Part shown: piece by piece, positions 2,353 to 12,479 of the stretch
Layout: each line of letters starts with the position of its first letter
Position numbering within the stretch: the stretch's first letter is position 1
NCBI RefSeq assembly: GCF_044324875.1
Contig: NZ_CP172185.1
Reading direction: 5' to 3' (one strand)
Source: Escherichia coli
GTDB lineage: Bacteria > Pseudomonadota > Gammaproteobacteria > Enterobacterales > Enterobacteriaceae
Length of the DNA stretch: 64,000 nucleotides
The notes under the pieces: model-generated
Databases searched by the model: none
Seen by the model: the letters and a program-made list of their open reading frames with translations, nothing else
What the model was told of the DNA's origin: nothing
Program-made: the position numbers and the translations under genes

Positions 2353-3173
2353 AGATGAATAAATCCGTCGTAGACATGTACCGCCGGGCCAGTCATATAT
2401 AACGGGTGACCCGGACCTTTCCAGGCGATATCAAGACGACCGCCGGGGAGTTCCACGCGTACTTCTTCGGCCAGCAAACCTTGCTGAATCCCTACCGCCA
2501 CCGCCGCACATGCGCCGCTGCCGCAGGCCTGGGTTTCTCCTGCCCCACGCTCATAAACGCGTAAACGAATATGCTCGCGCTTAACCACTTGCATAAAACC
2601 GATATTGGCGCGCTCCGGAAAACGCTCATGGCTTTCCAGAACAGGACCAAGCGTTTCTACCGCCGCGGTATCGACATCATCGACCTGAATCACGCAGTGC
2701 GGATTTCCCATCGACACCACGCCACATAAGATTGTCTGCTCGGCGGCGCGCATAATATAGGTCTTTTCCGCTTTGTTAGCGCGAAACGGCACAGCGGAAG
2801 GTTCGAAGTTGGGCTCGCCCATGTTTACGCGAACCAGATCATCATCGGTGACGGTCAGAACCATCCGCCCGTTGGCGGTGCTGACGCGGATATCGCGCTT
2901 ATTGGTCAGCCCTTTCAGACGCACAAAACGGGCAAAGCAGCGCGCGCCGTTGCCGCACTGCGCCACTTCACTGCCATCGGCATTGAAAATGCGATAGTGA
3001 AAATCCAGTTCAGGATCATACGGTGGCTCAACCACCAGCAGTTGGTCAAACCCTACCCCCAGGTGCCGATCCGCCAGGCGACGAATCAGCTCCGGTGAAA
3101 AAAAGACATTCTGCGTTACCGCGTCGACGACCATAAAATCGTTGCCAAGGCCATGCATTTTCGAGAACTGCAT
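2349..3173 (-). CDS. dapF: Diaminopimelate epimerase
   Basis: ORF translation matches DapF ([17 protein letters not shown]...); 274 aa from the second Met; catalytic Cys motifs GNGARC and ACGSGA present. Confidence 0.95.
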
Positions 3174-3209
3174 CATTTACTCCAATCACGCGGGTACAGA
3201 AACTGACTT

Positions 3210-3413
3210 TTAGTAATTCACCTGGGATGGACCATCGCCAGTGGCGCGGTCGTTTTTATCCGGCACTGTGGATTGCGTTTGCGTCTCTACCGGTTTGGTC
3301 GGCGGTGGTGCGTTTTTATCTGCAGGCGGGAAATAGAGCGGACCTTTCAGACCGCAGCCCGTCAGGCTGAAGAGAGTAAGTAATACAGTGAGTGCCTTAA
3401 ACACGTTTTTCAT
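3210..3413 (-). CDS. yifL: Small lipoprotein YifL (LptM)
   Basis: 67-aa ORF with lipobox LTGC and Pro-rich tail; immediately upstream of dapF as in E. coli. Confidence 0.9.
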   Translation of the reverse strand: MKNVFKALTVLLTLFSLTGCGLKGPLYFPPADKNAPPPTKPVETQTQSTVPDKNDRATGDGPSQVNY

Positions 3414-3490
3414 TATGGATTGCCTGTAAAGTTCATCGCTTTCTGCTTTCTATCATCGCAGGAGAAGGCGTAAAAGCAAGCGTTTAGCGA

Positions 3491-3670
3491 CTCTTTATGA
3501 AGTCTGAAAAGTGAGGAAATGCTGCGAGTATAACGCTTACACGTGGCGATTTATGTTTTGCTGGTAGTTTCGTGATCAACACCTCGTGCCAGGATGGCTT
3601 TATGCACTATCGCAATGTGGTTTGTTTGTTGTCTTGTTCGTTGTTTTTATCGTCGGCATGGGGCTTTTAA
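3491..3670 (+). repeat. Copy 1 of conserved 5' leader module of the islet paralogs (decayed)
   Basis: About 175 bp alignable by eye to 4579-4760 and in part to 7455-7565; contains AGGA RBS and ATG. Confidence 0.7.
3602..3670 (+). pseudogene. Truncated signal-peptide remnant of an islet paralog
   Basis: 22-codon frame MHYRNVVCLLSCSLFLSSAWGF-stop; same signal peptide as the ORFs at 4688 and 7498 but the Cys after AWG is replaced by Phe and followed by TAA. Confidence 0.5.
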
Positions 3671-3761
3671 AAGAGTGGCGCACCATGCAATTTCGTTGTC
3701 TGACCTTAGTCGCCAGTGACATACAGCTTTGCCAACCTGGTGATAAGAGGGAAAAAATCTG

Positions 3762-4316
3762 ATGGGGCTATTTACCCAACTGGAAAAATTTGACCAAAAG
3801 CTTACGCGCGGTTATGCCCGCTGGGGGCGCTGGGTATGGCGGACGTTAATTGTCGTTCCAATACTGGTCGTATTGTGGAATATAGGGCAGGCAGTATGGG
3901 GAGGACCAAGAGGTGGAGTGATTCTGGAAATCCACAGTGAAATTGACCGCCCGATACTGGGATTCAGTGTTAACGGCGTGGCGGGCGCGAATGCTTTTGC
4001 GAATGGTGGCGGTTCAATCACCTGTTGCGGTGATGTCAGTGGGGATACGGCAGAGGTTATCTGGACATTAAGTACTACTCGTACACAGTATAATGCTGGA
4101 ATGCGTCTGGAGAAACGCAATATGACGTTACCTCTCCCAAAAAGAGAATGGGGAGAAAATTATCTGCACGTGCATTTTATGCCTGGCGATAAAGTGTTGC
4201 TGGGGTGGAGTAAAGATTCTTTTTCTCCGTATGAAGATCTTCACAACGGGGGGTACAAGACCCGCGTTCGGCAGGATGTGAAAGATAAACTTTATGGCAC
4301 AGGAAAAATGAATTGA
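3762..4316 (+). CDS. Hypothetical membrane-anchored protein (184 aa)
   Basis: ORF with purine-rich RBS upstream; N-terminal hydrophobic segment TLIVVPILVVLWNIGQAVW; Gly-rich region and CC dipeptide; no recognised family. Confidence 0.55.
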   Translation: MGLFTQLEKFDQKLTRGYARWGRWVWRTLIVVPILVVLWNIGQAVWGGPRGGVILEIHSEIDRPILGFSVNGVAGANAFANGGGSITCCGDVSGDTAEVIWTLSTTRTQYNAGMRLEKRNMTLPLPKREWGENYLHVHFMPGDKVLLGWSKDSFSPYEDLHNGGYKTRVRQDVKDKLYGTGKMN

Positions 4317-4578
4317 TAGATTTCTATAAAAATCACGTTCGGCAGAAAGCGTAATAATGTGGCGAATGTTAGATACCCGTGGTGGAACCTGGGTACAACT
4401 CGTGAAAGACAATAAAGAAGGCAACGGGGGGCGGAATCCCACCTTGCCTCCCTTCCAGGGGTCAATCCGGAATATTTTTATGCTATTAGCCGTACTATGG
4501 GGCAGTTCCGGGATTGTATTTATATCGTGAATGAAAACATCACCTTTATTCCAGCAACTATCAGAAAATAGCGATGAC

Positions 4579-4760
4579 CTTTATGGATTCTGAAAAGTGA
4601 CGATTTGCTGCGAGAGTTACGCTTACTTGTGAGGATTTATGTTCTGCTGGTAGTTTCGTGATCGGCACCTCACGCCAGGATGGCTTTATGCACTTTCGCA
4701 ATGTGGTTTGTTTGTTGTCTTGTTCGTTGTTCTTATCGCCTGCCTGGGGATGTAAGCTTT
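4579..4760 (+). repeat. Copy 2 of conserved 5' leader module
   Basis: Near-identical to 3491-3670; spans upstream leader, RBS and signal-peptide codons of the ORF starting at 4688. Confidence 0.7.
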
Positions 4761-6130
4761 CATCTGTGGATCCCAATGAGTATCAGCAACAGGGAAAAGG
4801 CGTGGTGTACCTGCGCCCTAATCAAAACACCAATCTTTCGCTACCGAACGTGAATTACAAGCGCCTGCGTCGGTTGGCGAATTTGTTAATTGACCCAGCG
4901 ACACTGGAAGATTGGGAGGAAATACCGCCGTTAACCGATCTGTCTACTGATTATGATGTGAGGGGCGCAAATGCCTGGTATCCTCATTACTCCTGGCATA
5001 GCGATGGTCGCTATATTATTTACGCTGGCAAGATAGTGCAAAATCCTGCGGGTGCACCGCCGGTTGACGTCACGTCATTCAAGGCTTGGGGCGATTTTGC
5101 CGCTGATAAAAATAGCCTCTATTTCAGAGGCGAACGCACGGATGACAATGGTGGTGACAAGCCTTTAGATAGCAAAACACTGCATCAGATGAATTTACCG
5201 CCGCCATGGGAACCTGACGTCCTCGGGCTGATATTGCGTGATGCTAACTTCCTGTATATCAACGGGCATCGTATTGCTGAGACCAATAGTTTCCGCGTGC
5301 TGGCGCAAAAGTCCTGGGATAAGCACGGAAAATTTTCCATGAAGTTTAGCTGCATTCGCAAACCATTCGGCCCCTGGGATACGCTGGCTCGTACACAGAC
5401 GAAGATTATGCTCAACGGCGAACAACTGGATGCCGACCCGGATACCTTCACCGTTGTGCGCTGGATACCTGAAGCATTAATAAGCTGGCGAGATAAAAAC
5501 GGCTTTCACCGAAAGGTACTGGATCAATATGCCCTGGACAGCAATGAGGAATATAGCTGCGGTAGTTTCAATGTAAAGGAACACCGCGTCACCTGGCGTA
5601 GTAGCTTCCCGGGTAAGGGAGCAGAATGCCAACAAGAAGAGATTCCCGGCCTCGATCCTGAACAGTTTCACCCAATTAGCGATGCTGTCGCGCAATATCA
5701 GGACAAGCTGTACGTCATCGAAACAACGCCATTTGACGAGCTCAAGCTGAATATTGTTACGCTTGATGACCCGAAACTGATTATTAATAAGCGCTTCAAC
5801 GCCGGGAAGCGTCACGGTTACTTGCTCACAAGAAAGGGAGACGAGTTTGGGGATTCTGGTTTACAGGTGTTTGAATCCGCCGGGCCGCTCATTTTATTTG
5901 ATAACCACATCCCCAGCGAACGGGAAGCGCATCAGGTTAGCAGCAACCCTTATATCCAAAAATGGTTAGCCCGCGACGACAAATATGTTTATCGCTTCGA
6001 TGGCATGCAGCTCTGGCGCTATCACACCGCAGATCCCCGAGCCGTGCGCGTCGTGAACGATCAACTCGATGACAAAATTAACGGTGATGGCGAGTTTATA
6101 CCCACTCCGCGCGATGAGGCTAAAAAATGA
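4688..6130 (+). CDS. Secreted or lipoprotein-like repeat protein, paralog 1 (DKNYY-like repeats)
   Basis: Track ORF 4658-6130 (GTG); the conserved ATG at 4688 with AGGA RBS is preferred; signal peptide MHFRNVVCLLSCSLFLSPAWG-C; repeated units with D-x-x-[ST]-F and D-[KDN]-x-[YL]-[VL]-Y motifs. Confidence 0.75.
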   Translation: MHFRNVVCLLSCSLFLSPAWGCKLSSVDPNEYQQQGKGVVYLRPNQNTNLSLPNVNYKRLRRLANLLIDPATLEDWEEIPPLTDLSTDYDVRGANAWYPHYSWHSDGRYIIYAGKIVQNPAGAPPVDVTSFKAWGDFAADKNSLYFRGERTDDNGGDKPLDSKTLHQMNLPPPWEPDVLGLILRDANFLYINGHRIAETNSFRVLAQKSWDKHGKFSMKFSCIRKPFGPWDTLARTQTKIMLNGEQLDADPDTFTVVRWIPEALISWRDKNGFHRKVLDQYALDSNEEYSCGSFNVKEHRVTWRSSFPGKGAECQQEEIPGLDPEQFHPISDAVAQYQDKLYVIETTPFDELKLNIVTLDDPKLIINKRFNAGKRHGYLLTRKGDEFGDSGLQVFESAGPLILFDNHIPSEREAHQVSSNPYIQKWLARDDKYVYRFDGMQLWRYHTADPRAVRVVNDQLDDKINGDGEFIPTPRDEAKK

Positions 6131-7437
6131 AAGTGATGAAAAAAAGTATCTCACTGGCGCTCATCCTGTTGGGGTACACGGTGGCAATTCCGGCCGTCCA
6201 GGCTGAAGGGTACGAATACTACTCTAACCAGGGAGCCCTGGTTTACGGTTCAAACTTCGGGGGACAAAAGAAAATCATTGCCAAGTTTACGGGAATTAAC
6301 AGACGCGATTTGTACCCTGTGGAAAATATCTCTGGCGAGCAGGAACGATATATTATCGAAGATGAAGTCACCACAATTAAAGAGGAGTACCACTGGATAA
6401 CGGACGGTCACGTCATTCTCTGGCGAGGGAAAATCGTGAGTAATCCTCCCGGTACGCCAATGGTCGATGTTGCCAGCTTTAAGGCTCTGGGCCGCTTCGC
6501 CGTCGATAAATACAGTCTCTATTTTGACGGTCAGCGCACCGAAAGCAATAGCGGTGCTTCGAAGGTGGACCTGGCAACCCTAAAAGCTATCGAAGATAAC
6601 AGCAGCACGCTGGTTGACCGACATAACCTTTATTTATTGGGACGCAGGCAGGCCAGTAGCGACGATTTCAGCGTACTACAAAGTAAATTGTGGGGGGATA
6701 TCGAGCGGTTCCGCCCACGCAATGAAGGGGCTACCTCCCGCGACCTGCTTATTCGTCATCGCCAGGATGTGTTTCTCAATGGTCAGCGCATTGCAGACGT
6801 TGATGCTGACACCTTTCACATCATTCGATGGATCCCCAATTCATTATTGGTCTACCGCGACAAACATGGTGAGCACCGTTACGCCTATGGCAACCCGGCC
6901 GGAAAAATGGCAACGACCGATGATGCGAATTCGTTTGAAATCGGTGAAAAAACCGTCCGCTGGCGCAGGCAACTCGCGCGGGATGACGCCTGGCCCACGC
7001 AACTCTCGTGGGATGTCATATGGGGGGCCTGGCAGGATATTCCCAATGTTGATCCGGAACAGTTCCATCTGATCACTGACCGCATCGCGCAGTATCAGGA
7101 TCGTCTGTATATCATCAAACTGTCGCCAGTTGGCGAAGACCAGCTTAACGTTATCACCCTGGATACCCCTGATTTAGTGGTTGATCACGTCTTCAATGGT
7201 GGGAAAAAGCACATTTATATTATCAAGGACAGAGCGTGGGTGCAGGATGTTCATGTGATTGCTACCCACGGTCCACTCACCATGGCTGAGAGTTTCGCCT
7301 GGGACGATCGCTATGTATATGCCTGGCGGGGCCAGCGACCTTCCAGAACTGAATCGCCATGTCCGGAGCAAACCGTTGAGCAGGATGATGGCATAGTCAT
7401 TAAGACCGAAGCATCAGAGTGCCACCGCACGCCGTAA
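6127..7437 (+). CDS. Secreted repeat protein, paralog 2 (DKNYY-like repeats)
   Basis: 436-aa ORF; start ATG overlaps the stop of the upstream paralog (ATGA); classical Sec signal MKVMKKSISLALILLGYTVAIPAVQA; repeat motifs VDVASF, DKYSLYF, DDRYVY; Cys-containing C-terminal tail. Confidence 0.75.
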   Translation: MKVMKKSISLALILLGYTVAIPAVQAEGYEYYSNQGALVYGSNFGGQKKIIAKFTGINRRDLYPVENISGEQERYIIEDEVTTIKEEYHWITDGHVILWRGKIVSNPPGTPMVDVASFKALGRFAVDKYSLYFDGQRTESNSGASKVDLATLKAIEDNSSTLVDRHNLYLLGRRQASSDDFSVLQSKLWGDIERFRPRNEGATSRDLLIRHRQDVFLNGQRIADVDADTFHIIRWIPNSLLVYRDKHGEHRYAYGNPAGKMATTDDANSFEIGEKTVRWRRQLARDDAWPTQLSWDVIWGAWQDIPNVDPEQFHLITDRIAQYQDRLYIIKLSPVGEDQLNVITLDTPDLVVDHVFNGGKKHIYIIKDRAWVQDVHVIATHGPLTMAESFAWDDRYVYAWRGQRPSRTESPCPEQTVEQDDGIVIKTEASECHRTP

Positions 7438-7454
7438 AATGGGTCATTATTTTT

Positions 7455-7565
7455 AACGGGTAGTTTCATGATCAACACCTCGCGCCAGGATGGCTTTATG
7501 CACTATCGCAATGTGGTTTGTTTGTTGTCTTGTTCATTGTTTTTATCGTCGGCATGGGGATGTCG
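7455..7565 (+). repeat. Copy 3 of conserved 5' leader module
   Basis: About 110 bp matching the 3' part of copies 1 and 2 (RBS plus signal-peptide codons). Confidence 0.7.
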
Positions 7566-9525
7566 GCTTTCCGCGCCTGAACATAATATTTACCAGAAAC
7601 AGGGAAAAGGCGTGGTATACCTGCGCCCTTATAAAGAAACAAATCTTTCTCTTCCTGACGTGAATTACAAAAGTTTGCGCCGTTTACCCAATTTATTAAT
7701 AGACCCGACAACACTAGACGAATGGGATAAAGAACCGCCTCTGACTGATTTGACAACCGACTACCTCTATGAGGGCGCACAGGCCTGGTATCCTCATTAT
7801 TCCTGGCATAGCGATGGTCGCAATATCCTCTACGCGGGTGAAGTTGTGCAAAACCCTCCCGGCACACCTCCCGTCGATGTCGCCTCGTTCAAGGCATGGG
7901 GTGATTTTGCCGCAGATAAACACAGTCTCTATTTTGAAGGCAAGCGCACCGATGACAATGGCGGAGAAAATAGTCTAGATATCAAAACGCTGCATCAGGT
8001 GAAATTCCGTTCCCCCTGGAAACCTGACTTACTGGGGCTGATATTACGTGACGCTAATTTCTTGTATATCAATGGGCATCGCCTCGCTGACCCCGAGAGT
8101 TTCCGTGTGCTGGCGCAAAAGTCCTGGGATCGGCGAGGAAAGTTTTCCGCCGAGTTTAACCCCTGCGTTGCCGTACCATTTGGCCCCTGGGATACGTTAG
8201 CCCGTACACGGACCAAAATCATAATCAATGGCGAACAGCTTACAGCCGACCCAGAGACATTTACTGTCGTGCGCTGGATGCCCAGTTCGTTATTAACCTG
8301 GCGTGATAAAAACGGGCTGCAGCGTAAAGTGCTGAATCAGGGAAATCTGGACAAAGATAGGGCAAATAGCTGTGCAACGTTCAATTTACAGGAACACTTT
8401 GTTTCATGGCGCAAAGGGCCAGAATGTCAGCAAGAAGTCCTACCCGGCCTCGATCCAGAACAATTTCACCCTCTTAGTAATACCGTTGCTCAGTATCAGG
8501 ACAAGCTGTACACCATCAAAAAAACGGAATTTGGCGAAAATAGGCTAGATATCGTCACACTGGATAATCCTGGTTTGGTGATAGATAAACGCTTTAACGC
8601 GGGAAGAACTCACGGCTATTTATTGACCAAATTACCAGCTGATGGTGAAGAAGAAGATGGCCTCCAGGTATTCGAGTCTTCCGGGCCGCTTATCCTGATG
8701 GATTATCGTGTTCCTGACGAGCATGAGGCTCACCTTAGCGATAGCCCCCATTACAAGAAATGGTATGCACACGACGATCGTTATGTTTACGCATTCGATG
8801 GCTCACAGCTTTGGCGCTACCCAACTCCCAATACCAAAGCCGTGCGGGTGAAATGGAAAACCAAAGATTCAGGATATGGCTATTGGGCAAACTACCGTAG
8901 TGGTGAGCTTGACGGCAGACTTCTTGAGGATGGTGCGTTTATTCCAACGGGAATCCCCTATAACTCATCCGTTAACATTGCTCAATATTCTGATGGCGAA
9001 GGCTCTTTTCTCGTCGGCGAAACCGATGTTAGCTGGCGTAAGCTTCGCTCTACAGACCAGCAATGGAGTCAATGGGAGAAACTCCCCGATATTGACCCGA
9101 AAGCATTTCATCCCATCACCGATCGTGTCGCGCAGTACAAAAATCATCTGTACATTGCGAAATTGTCTCCTTTTGGTGAAGACACCCTGGAGATAATAAC
9201 GCTCGACTCTTCTGCACCTTTCCTGAAACAACGAATTAACGCCGGGAAAGGCCATGGTTACTTTATGCGCTCTTCCCGTTTACGCGATGATATTCAAATT
9301 TTTGCTATTGATGGACCATTGAAAACCACCGAACGTTTCGCTTATGACAATCGCTATGTTTATACCTGGATCGGTAGCCAACTTTATCGAACCGCATCGC
9401 CCTGTCCGGCCAGGACACGTAATCTGGATCAGAACATGTTTTCATCCAATGATGACATCATCATCCTGAAGACGGAGGAAGAGTGCCACAAAACACCAGA
9501 CATTGAGCAAACTTTGAAGCCCTGA
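7498..9525 (+). CDS. Secreted or lipoprotein-like repeat protein, paralog 3 (long mosaic form)
   Basis: Track ORF 7468-9525; conserved ATG at 7498; N-terminal two thirds closely similar to paralog 1 at DNA level; C-terminal third resembles the C-terminus of paralog 2 including the SPCP...ECH[KR]TP tail. Confidence 0.75.
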   Translation: MHYRNVVCLLSCSLFLSSAWGCRLSAPEHNIYQKQGKGVVYLRPYKETNLSLPDVNYKSLRRLPNLLIDPTTLDEWDKEPPLTDLTTDYLYEGAQAWYPHYSWHSDGRNILYAGEVVQNPPGTPPVDVASFKAWGDFAADKHSLYFEGKRTDDNGGENSLDIKTLHQVKFRSPWKPDLLGLILRDANFLYINGHRLADPESFRVLAQKSWDRRGKFSAEFNPCVAVPFGPWDTLARTRTKIIINGEQLTADPETFTVVRWMPSSLLTWRDKNGLQRKVLNQGNLDKDRANSCATFNLQEHFVSWRKGPECQQEVLPGLDPEQFHPLSNTVAQYQDKLYTIKKTEFGENRLDIVTLDNPGLVIDKRFNAGRTHGYLLTKLPADGEEEDGLQVFESSGPLILMDYRVPDEHEAHLSDSPHYKKWYAHDDRYVYAFDGSQLWRYPTPNTKAVRVKWKTKDSGYGYWANYRSGELDGRLLEDGAFIPTGIPYNSSVNIAQYSDGEGSFLVGETDVSWRKLRSTDQQWSQWEKLPDIDPKAFHPITDRVAQYKNHLYIAKLSPFGEDTLEIITLDSSAPFLKQRINAGKGHGYFMRSSRLRDDIQIFAIDGPLKTTERFAYDNRYVYTWIGSQLYRTASPCPARTRNLDQNMFSSNDDIIILKTEEECHKTPDIEQTLKP

Positions 9526-9572
9526 CCCCATGCCGCTATACTGCCGCCATCACTTAAAAACAGGATACAACA

Positions 9573-9893
9573 ATGAACGACAGTGAATTTCATCGCCTGG
9601 CTGATCAACTGTGGCTGACCATTGAAGAGCGTCTGGACGACTGGGATGGCGATAGCGATATCGACTGCGAAATCAACGGCGGTGTACTGACCATTACCTT
9701 TGAAAACGGGAGCAAAATCATTATCAACCGTCAGGAACCGCTGCACCAGGTGTGGCTGGCAACCAAACAGGGCGGCTACCATTTTGATATGAAAGGCGAT
9801 GAGTGGATTTGCGATCGTAGCGGCGAAACCTTCTGGGATTTGCTGGAACAGGCGGCGACGCAGCAGGCGGGTGAAACAGTCAGTTTCCGCTAA
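9573..9893 (+). CDS. cyaY: Frataxin homolog CyaY
   Basis: 106-aa translation matches remembered E. coli CyaY ([14 protein letters not shown]...). Confidence 0.95.
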
Positions 9894-9900
9894 GATTGCA

Positions 9901-9926
9901 TGCCGGATAAGCCTCGCTTTCCGGCA
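9901..9926. terminator. Hairpin between convergent cyaY and cyaA
   Basis: Inverted repeat tgccgga...tccggca between the two stop codons. Confidence 0.5.
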
Positions 9927-9932
9927 CGCTCA

Positions 9933-12479
9933 TCACGAAAAATACTGCTGTAATAGCGGCGTGTCGTGATCCTGATTGGCAGGCGGCATGTTGCCGATAG
10001 ATTTGGTGCGGAACGGAATCACCTGTTCACGACCATCAACCTTCACAATCTGATAGAACTGCGGCAGGTTGAAGTTGATGAAGCTTGAGCCGTAGGTAAA
10101 ACGGTCGTGCGATGACGAGTAGAAGCGACTGACGTCACGCACCAGCTCCTCTTTGCTGCCTTCGCAGTGGTGATACACCTCAACCCGGTTGCTTTCGTCG
10201 AGAATGTAGATATTAAAGCCATTCTCGTCTTGCGTTTCTTCGAAAAAGAACTGGATGATCCCTTCGCTGGCAAAGCCGTCCACCACCGCCGGTAATTTGA
10301 CGTGATTGGTTTCAACCTGCACTGACAGGCCGTGCAGTTTGTTATGCGAAATAGCGCCATAAAACTCGATGGCATTTTCTAGTTTCTGTACCGATACATT
10401 CAGGCGTTCGAAGAATAAGCCCCAGGTTTGACCAGAAACGCGCAGCGCCTTGAAGCGCCCGGTTTCCTGGCGGGTGCTGGAAAGACGCAGTTCAATGCAC
10501 TCAGAAACCAGTTGCTGTACACGAGTACGGATTAATCCGCGCAGATGCTGGCTGTAGCAGAAGACTTCCACGCTATCTGGCGGTGCGGCGTCCTGATGCA
10601 TTTTGCCGAGAATAGTTTTCAGGGCTTCGATCATCGACTGCTCGCCGTTGAAGTGCAGCGTACGCACTTCGTTCCACGAGTTGCGGTACAGCAGGTCAAC
10701 GCTACCTACCAGGCAATTTTGATTCTCGCCAAAGCTGAAGACATCCAGCTTACGGAAATCAAAATGCACCACCTGATTGCGGAACGCAGCTGTCGGGTCA
10801 TATTCCAGGTTAACGATAATCGCCAGATGGCGGATCTCACACGGGCTGTAGAGCGCCTTCGGTGTCGGTGCAGGTAAGCGCAGCGGGAAATGGTGCGACA
10901 CGTCGGCGACCATCTCCTGCAACTTAGGCAAATCGACAATGCCGTTACCTTTAATATACAAACGGGTGCGCGAGGTCAGCAGGCCGTTAAACCACGCCCA
11001 GGCCACTAGCTTATTAAGATAACGGTTATATTCCAGCGGCTGATGGCTGATGATCGACTCAATATTTGGCGCGCGGTTATACAGATACCAACCTGAACGG
11101 TTAGCCCGGCCCGGCGGCACATAAATAAAGGTCAGATTCGGTTCCGAGAGATCGGGCGAAATCTGCGGGTTTACCAGCGTCACTTTACCTGGCAATGCTT
11201 CAAACGCGGCATACAGTTTACGCGTCAGTACGCCGATATCCTGCGGACTGGCGGAGACGCTAAGGTTATTGCGACGCGCAAAGCGGATCAGATTACGGTA
11301 GCTCTGCATCATTGCGTCGAGCAGCTCGTTGTGCGCCTCACGCACCTGATCAATCTTCCAGTTAGCGCGGTTATCGAGCATTGCCAGACGAGCATCGTCC
11401 CATTCCCACTCTTTCACTAACTGGGTTAGCACTTCACGACGCCAGCCTACGCAAGCGCGTTCACGGCTGAGTTTTTCGCACACTTTTAAATAGAAGCAGC
11501 GGCGTACTAAATCCAGACGGGTGAAATCTTCAATCGCCGTCAGGTACTCAGTAACACGCTCCAGCATCATGCAGTAAGGATCGAGGCCAAACGATACAAT
11601 CTCGCCGTCGTGCAAACGCTGTTTGATATCTTTCGCCAGCAGTCGTGGGTTGGGGTATTCCCAGGAATAGGCTTCCAGTAGCAGTGTTTTCAGCACCGCT
11701 TTGTATGGGGAATCGATACTCTTATAGAGCTGCCAAAGGCTGGCACCAAAGTACTCTTCGGCAGAAAGTGAGCTTAAGCCGCCGAGATCCAGCCATTCAT
11801 TTGGCGTCAGCACGCCCTGCGCGTAAAGCGTCATCACATAGTCATCGTAATGCTCTTCTTCGTCGCACGGCACCATATTCCACAGAATACGCTTACCGGC
11901 GAGACGCACGGCGGTACGATAAAATTCGTCAAGCAGCAGTATATGCTGGGTGGAGCCACAATCTTCGCCCCCCAGGCTGCCGCTTTCATTATGACGGAAG
12001 CGATTTTCATCAATCAGGAAGAAGCTAACTTCCACGCCCAGCGAGGCGGCCCAGCTTTCCAGCAGGCTGCATTTACGTTGTAGTAACTGGCGCTCTTCGC
12101 TATCAAGCCAGGATTGATGACAGACCCAGATATCCAAGTCAGAGGAACAACTTTGCCCTACGGACGAGGTGCTGCCCATGGTGTATACACCAGTAATTGG
12201 AAGCTCACCTTTCGGCGGGTCCTGTACTGACATTCCACGATACAGTTCAAGCTCGTTCAGGTAGTGGCGTTGAGTTTCATCAGGCGTGTAAAGGCAAATG
12301 CCTTTGGGAACGTTACCATCAAGGTAACCCGGCATTAGCGGATGGTGATAGTGCAACAATGTCGGCAGTAGACTGTAGACCTGTTGGAATGCAGGCCCCA
12401 TAGCAGCAAGCGCGCGATCCACACGCAATTGATTTATGGCATCCAGTCTCTGTTTCAGAGTCTCAATATAGAGGTACAA
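9933..12479 (-). CDS. cyaA: Adenylate cyclase
   Basis: 848-aa ORF starting with TTG (known UUG start of cyaA); translation matches CyaA. Confidence 0.95.

Follow-up and report, generated by a model that had tools for sequence, protein, structure and literature searches.

A cluster, or islet, of DKNYY genes lies directly upstream of cyaY and on the same strand in the window analyzed here, a 64,000-nucleotide stretch of Escherichia coli DNA (contig NZ_CP172185.1), and this raises the question of what transcribes cyaY. CyaY is the bacterial frataxin and a modulator of IscS-dependent Fe-S cluster assembly; given that role, a strain-specific change in its transcription, if true, would be worth knowing. 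An earlier note on this DNA had proposed that transcription of the islet may run on into cyaY and alter its regulation relative to strains that lack the islet. The reading favored below, to which we give a probability of roughly 0.8, is that the gap between the islet and cyaY is the core of the gene's own sigma-70-type promoter together with a short leader, and that cyaY is transcribed independently, with minor or conditional read-through on top.

The islet and its junction with cyaY

The order of genes is yigB, xerC, yigA, dapF and lptM (minus strand; lptM at 3210..3413), an islet of about 6 kb on the plus strand, cyaY (plus), cyaA (9933..12479, minus) and hemC, and the window is 99.9% identical to E. 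coli strain Ecol_316 over 3150-10000. The limits of the islet (3490..9536) are approximate to within a few bp and come from homology to islet-free Enterobacteriaceae, which stops at about 3489 and resumes at 9537. Its GC content is 48.6%, versus 52-55% in the flanks. All of its genes are read on the plus strand. At the left end stands a truncated repeat copy of a DKNYY leader and signal-peptide fragment (3493..3663), 98% identical to the left half of a remnant in K-12 that is described below. Next comes a gene for a protein of 184 aa (3762..4316), called DUF3304 after the RefSeq name in Ecol_316 and a Pfam match just under the cutoff (E=3e-4), and then three genes with Pfam DKNYY matches: DK1 (4688..6130; 480 aa from the RefSeq start), DK2 (6127..7437; 436 aa), whose start overlaps the DK1 stop by 4 nt, and DK3 (7498..9525; 675 aa), the last gene of the islet.

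The three DKNYY genes are true paralogs, DK1 and DK3 being 66% identical over 490 aa and DK2 and DK3 35% identical. In DK3 the C-terminal domain occurs a second time (residues ~498-667), in a copy 42% identical to residues 264-436 of DK2. The N-termini of DK1 and DK3 contain a possible lipoprotein signal, LLSCSLFLS[PS]AWGC, and DK2 has an ordinary signal peptide (…AVQA/EG). A unit of about 170 nt, made up of the leader and the first part of a DKNYY gene, signal peptide included, occurs three times, at 3493-3663, 4579-4749 and 7389-7559; the first copy is a dead fragment closed by a stop codon, and the DUF3304 gene follows it. Overall the islet resembles an array of cassettes that recombination between paralogs has remodelled. 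No transposase or integrase genes were seen among its ORFs, the only Pfam families found in its proteins were DUF3304 and DKNYY, and a literature search on the islet or on DKNYY proteins found nothing relevant. Against NCBIfam, the DUF3304 protein matched only the Tli1a immunity family, at 19 bits and so far below the cutoff of 110. Tli1a is a type VI lipase immunity family, and at another place in E. coli a related DUF3304 gene adjoins a DUF4123 gene; these are hints that the DUF3304 part of the islet may be linked to type VI secretion.

The starting observation, that the last paralog ends at 9525 and that cyaY begins at 9573 on the same strand, agrees with the ORF coordinates. The DK3 ORF (7468/7498..9525) closes with a TGA codon at 9523-9525, the gap covers the 47 bp from 9526 to 9572, and the following gene (9573..9893; 106 aa) is cyaY by RefSeq annotation and by its match to Pfam Frataxin_Cyay (E=2e-34). 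The accompanying claim that the gap holds no hairpin with a T-tract is borne out as well, with both the terminator scan and RNA folding coming up blank. The scan, which covered 3100-10300, found no intrinsic terminator in or near the gap, and the longest run of T in 9480-9600 is three. Folds of the junction are not more stable than those of dinucleotide shuffles, whether taken over 9500-9580 (z = +0.23), 9480-9600 (+1.24), 9526-9572 (+0.06) or 9440-9572 (-0.06). The best structure in the gap is an interrupted stem of 4 bp at -3.8 kcal/mol; a hairpin downstream of cyaY, with z = -3.2, served as the positive control for folding. With neither a GC-rich stem-loop nor a U/T-tract present, an intrinsic terminator in the gap was rejected. 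No riboswitch, leader or sRNA element of Rfam was found in 3100-10300 at E<=1. A short, unstructured same-strand gap is typical of tandem bacterial gene pairs and is no more than chance gives.

Rho-dependent termination was also considered. Rho loading normally needs some 70-80 nt of untranslated RNA that is C-rich, G-poor and unstructured. The composition of the gap fits (17 C and 6 G among 47 nt), but the distance from stop to start is only 47 nt and about half of this lies under the ribosome-binding region of cyaY, so that, from known Rho behavior, the stretch is probably too short for efficient loading and a Rho-dependent terminator here is improbable.

Downstream, the positive-control hairpin lies at 9898-9929 between the convergent cyaY and cyaA genes and folds well on both strands (z = -3.2 on the plus strand and -3.4 on the minus strand). 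It lacks a T-tract on either side, is absent from the terminator scan and is not a canonical intrinsic terminator; it is the likely end of any transcript that contains cyaY. A REP-like element is one possibility, an unconventional bidirectional terminator another.

A resident promoter for cyaY

The sequence at the junction can be read as a promoter on the plus strand. A -35-like hexamer, TTGAAG (9514-9519), lies in the 3' end of the islet, where it forms Leu-Lys codons of DK3, its last two sense codons. After a spacer of 17 bp comes the -10 hexamer TATACT (9537-9542), then a GC-rich discriminator, GCCGCC, between the -10 and A9549, and then A9549 itself, the predicted transcription start, 7 nt past the -10 and 24 nt ahead of the cyaY ATG. 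A Shine-Dalgarno sequence, AGGA (9562-9565), stands 7 nt ahead of the ATG, and its GGA/GGG core is kept in an alignment of 26 Enterobacteriaceae sequences. The 47-bp gap therefore divides into 11 bp of islet-derived spacer, the ancestral -10, the discriminator and a 24-nt 5' UTR.

The promoter scan reported TTGAAG-17-TATACT at 9514-9542 with 9 of 12 matches to consensus, a result not significant when taken alone (8 such sites in 7.2 kb versus 9.8 expected by chance). The -10 differs little from TATAAT and has the A of position 2 and the T of position 6; the -35-like hexamer matches TTGACA at 4 of 6 positions, has the TTG, and stands at a spacing within the range of 16-18 bp. The scan found both hexamers at the same site in K-12.

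Conservation of the -10 region is much more telling. In cyaY loci sampled from 80 Enterobacteriaceae species, TATACT is present in 79, lies 27-31 nt ahead of the ATG in 78 of these, and is usually followed by GCCGCCATCAC. Neither TATACT nor A9549 varies in the 26-sequence alignment, and upstream of the -10 the islet-free and islet-bearing taxa cannot be aligned with each other. Most of the 80 loci have no islet, and in these cyaY is about 138 bp from lptM; since the upstream gene is divergent, the cyaY promoter must sit within that interval. The region from the -10 onward is ancestral to the Enterobacteriaceae. In 23CRST031, a rare E. coli variant, the islet ends differently, and homology to the window begins only at TATACT. 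One locus, CACSKA010000013.1, is labelled Chryseobacterium sp. 18061 and has a typical Enterobacteriaceae dapF-lptM-cyaY arrangement with CyaY 90% identical; it is probably mislabelled or contaminated.

Transcription start mapping in other strains points to the same site. The distance from start codon to transcription start of cyaY is 24 in MG1655 (RegulonDB v10.5) and likewise 24 in O157:H7 EDL933 by Cappable-seq, both as given in a published supplement (PMC10469882 Table S5 sheet 3), and in EDL933 the -24 site is the only gene-associated start that the same table gives within 250 bp of cyaY. From 19 nt before the DKNYY stop through the start of cyaY, the window (9507-9575) is identical to both K-12 and EDL933, so the 24-nt distance places the +1 on A9549, 7 nt after TATACT. 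A mapped 5' end at 6-8 nt past the -10 is thus available in MG1655 and EDL933 and is transferred to the window by sequence identity. These source strains carry only an islet remnant upstream of cyaY, and promoter activity in the strain of the window is what the identical sequence would predict. In the accessible text of the Cappable-seq and SMRT-Cappable-seq supplements no entry for cyaY was found, nor were start-site coordinates between cyaY and lptM in the accessible part of the supplement to the EDL933 paper.

These three independent lines, namely conservation, start mapping in identical sequences and the natural experiment of 23CRST031, establish that the cyaY promoter is real. Its region is already catalogued, and the junction is in this respect an ordinary gene boundary. 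The earlier note had said that its proposal would be undone if a cyaY promoter and a terminator were both mapped within the gap and read-through transcripts were absent; the promoter exists, as mapped in K-12 and EDL933, and the terminator does not appear in either the scan or the folds.

Islet remnants and the origin of the -35 region

The proposed contrast between islet-bearing and islet-free strains also depends on what other E. coli carry at this site. K-12, which had been suggested as the comparator for the region upstream of cyaY, is not islet-free, its gap being identical and a remnant of the islet being present. The K-12 interval between lptM and cyaY is 462 bp (MG1655 3994060-3994521; 1765-2226 of the extracted K-12 locus) and consists of two fused pieces: the left end of the islet, with the leader and a DKNYY signal-peptide fragment, and the last ~70 bp of a terminal DKNYY gene. 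BLAST aligns this remnant with window 3149-3638, to which its left half is 98% identical, and with 9454-10046, and RefSeq annotates a DKNYY pseudogene at the remnant in the lptM-cyaY interval. By this evidence, what is called an intergenic region in K-12 is a decayed DKNYY islet. O157:H7 EDL933 likewise keeps a remnant with the 5' leader and the 3' end of the islet, and in neither strain does a convincing terminator stand between the two ends.

The MG1655 interval also holds yzcX (b3808, 3993850..3994335), an ORF antisense to cyaY and the remnant that is doubtful as a real gene; its counterpart in the window is shortened to 9429..9782 (117 aa). A "cyaY-yzcX divergent excludon" called by ExcludonFinder was discarded as uninformative, as yzcX overlaps cyaY in antisense by annotation. 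A possible terminator or attenuator within the DKNYY leader was discarded as well: the scan flagged a hairpin at 1873-1897 of the extracted K-12 locus, but the leader folds are not significantly stable (z = -0.66, +0.18 and -1.47) and so do not convince.

The junction is in fact a species-wide feature of E. coli and not a property of islet strains. The segment 9507-9580, which comprises the last 19 nt of the DKNYY ORF and the gap onward, is present, with at least 95% identity, in 5405 of the 5426 complete E. coli genomes (4860 by megablast). A full C-terminal DKNYY domain abuts cyaY in 1559 of the 5426 (29%); the remaining ~71% keep only the last 66-119 bp of the DKNYY end, and an islet like that of the window was found in only 52 E. 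coli genomes. Of the claim that the islet alters cyaY regulation relative to islet-free strains, the absence of an intrinsic terminator stands; against the rest are the conserved promoter, mapped in K-12 and EDL933, and the near absence of any contrast to draw when 5405 of 5426 genomes share the junction.

Beyond E. coli, the islet or a remnant is also present in other Escherichia species, and a tblastn survey found DKNYY sequence upstream of cyaY in only 11 of the 80 Enterobacteriaceae loci. The lptM-cyaY site holds DKNYY genes in Pseudocitrobacter vendiensis, whose protein has 92% aa identity to DK3, and in Citrobacter sp. FP75, Phytobacter diazotrophicus and Atlantibacter hermannii, and it holds DKNYY remnants in Kosakonia sp. 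S29 and Superficieibacter electus. In UTI89 an IS1 element separates two DKNYY genes, a further structural variant at the same hotspot (2845-3542 of the extracted UTI89 locus). The scatter of DKNYY loci, with absence in close relatives, suggests lateral exchange by way of the conserved flanks, or repeated loss.

Wherever it came from, the islet sits between the core promoters of the divergent lptM and cyaY genes: the left block is intact to about 3489 and the right end abuts the -10. The conserved lptM-proximal block presumably holds the lptM promoter, given that the lptM (yifL) start site lies ~30 nt upstream of the gene in K-12 (PMC10469882 Table S5). On the cyaY side, islet-free and islet-bearing taxa share homology from TATACT onward, which puts the insertion boundary between the -35 position and the resident -10. 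At the -35 position, with 17-bp spacing, 33 islet-free loci have CTGCAA, and nine DKNYY-bearing loci have TTGAAG (six) or TTGATG (three). Insertion of the islet therefore seems to have replaced an ancestral -35 region, CTGCAA, with TTGAAG, a modestly new point; the swap may affect cyaY expression. DK3 extends 8 codons (DIEQTLKP) past the position at which DK2 ends (ECH[KR]TP). The -35-like hexamer falls within this tail, as though the reading frame had just continued into the promoter.

Hybrid promoters arise when an insertion brings a new -35 to a resident -10, as with IS1, IS2 and IS257. The cyaY junction resembles these in that the islet boundary falls between the -35 and the -10, with TTGAAG or TTGATG supplied at 17-bp spacing. 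It differs in that the islet is neither an IS nor a recognizable mobile element, in that the -35 lies inside the coding tail of a gene, and in that its effect on expression is putative.

An extension of the favored reading would give this swap a regulatory consequence. A hybrid of islet and host DNA would drive the frataxin gene of Escherichia, a weak, conserved CTGCAA (possibly also a regulator site) having been exchanged for the islet's TTGAAG. Read-through from the islet would be added wherever the terminal DKNYY gene is intact (~29% of strains), and the level of expression would then not be the one seen in Salmonella, Citrobacter and Klebsiella. We regard this as a tentative proposal, with the odds somewhat against it.

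Possible read-through from the islet

The mechanism that best accommodates these observations has cyaY transcribed from its own promoter whatever sits upstream. With no intrinsic terminator in the gap, polymerase arriving from DK3 should run on into cyaY, and any polymerase transcribing the islet would continue through cyaY to the hairpin before cyaA, so that a polycistronic transcript, minor or conditional, would accompany the monocistronic one. The -35 region would have been swapped when the islet was inserted, with the sequence from the -10 onward remaining ancestral. Read-through from the islet into cyaY is plausible, on this sequence, wherever the islet is expressed, and it would add to the output of the resident cyaY promoter or possibly occlude it. 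The same holds in principle for K-12, where the remnant keeps the leader.

Partial read-through of operons is common in bacterial transcription units, and the DK3-cyaY junction is like other tandem junctions that lack a terminator and have an internal promoter, in that the gap is short and the downstream promoter overlaps the end of the upstream ORF. It is unlike them in that DKNYY and cyaY are functionally unlinked and are not conserved neighbors outside Escherichia, and co-transcription is putative. Compared with K-12, the window has the same -35-like hexamer, -10, predicted +1 and Shine-Dalgarno in an identical sequence; the difference lies upstream, where the promoter is abutted by a full 675-aa DKNYY gene rather than by a remnant of ~70 bp, which gives more potential for incoming transcription than in K-12.

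A stronger version of the read-through idea would make cyaY in effect the last gene of an islet operon, with transcription from the islet dominating or reprogramming cyaY and islet strains regulating this Fe-S factor differently. The arrangement of the genes is compatible with it: DKNYY and cyaY share a strand, are 47 bp apart and have no terminator between them, the layout expected of an operon; farther up, the DK1 and DK2 frames share 4 nt, the spacer between DK2 and DK3 lacks structure and no significant terminator was found anywhere between DK1 and cyaY; and the full C-terminal DKNYY domain directly abuts cyaY in ~29% of E. coli genomes. The conserved promoter, mapped in strains of identical sequence, argues against such dominance, as does the presence of the junction and the DKNYY leader in K-12 and EDL933, which leaves no clean islet-free comparator within E. 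coli. Conserved adjacency of DKNYY and cyaY, another mark of an operon, was not found among the 80 Enterobacteriaceae loci, most of which lack the pairing, and no convincing islet promoter was found in the sequence. We consider this version unlikely.

Still less probable is that cyaY is fully insulated, with DKNYY transcription silenced by H-NS or stopped by Rho before cyaY and only the resident promoter mattering: the gap's C-rich, G-poor composition resembles a Rho utilization site, the slightly low GC content of the islet would suit acquired DNA and possible silencing by H-NS, and the -24 site is the sole gene-associated start near cyaY in EDL933, but the untranslated stretch is well below the length that Rho normally needs, the GC deficit is small and the gap is without structure.

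An independently transcribed cyaY with occasional read-through therefore remains the reading we prefer, and for the regulation of cyaY the islet then matters little: cyaY has retained a conserved promoter of its own, and nearly all E. coli share the junction. A useful point to emerge is that the K-12 lptM-cyaY "intergenic region," which holds the doubtful antisense yzcX, is a decayed DKNYY islet. The apparently islet-derived -35 of the Escherichia cyaY promoter, in turn, would provide a simple and testable case of promoter remodelling by insertion.
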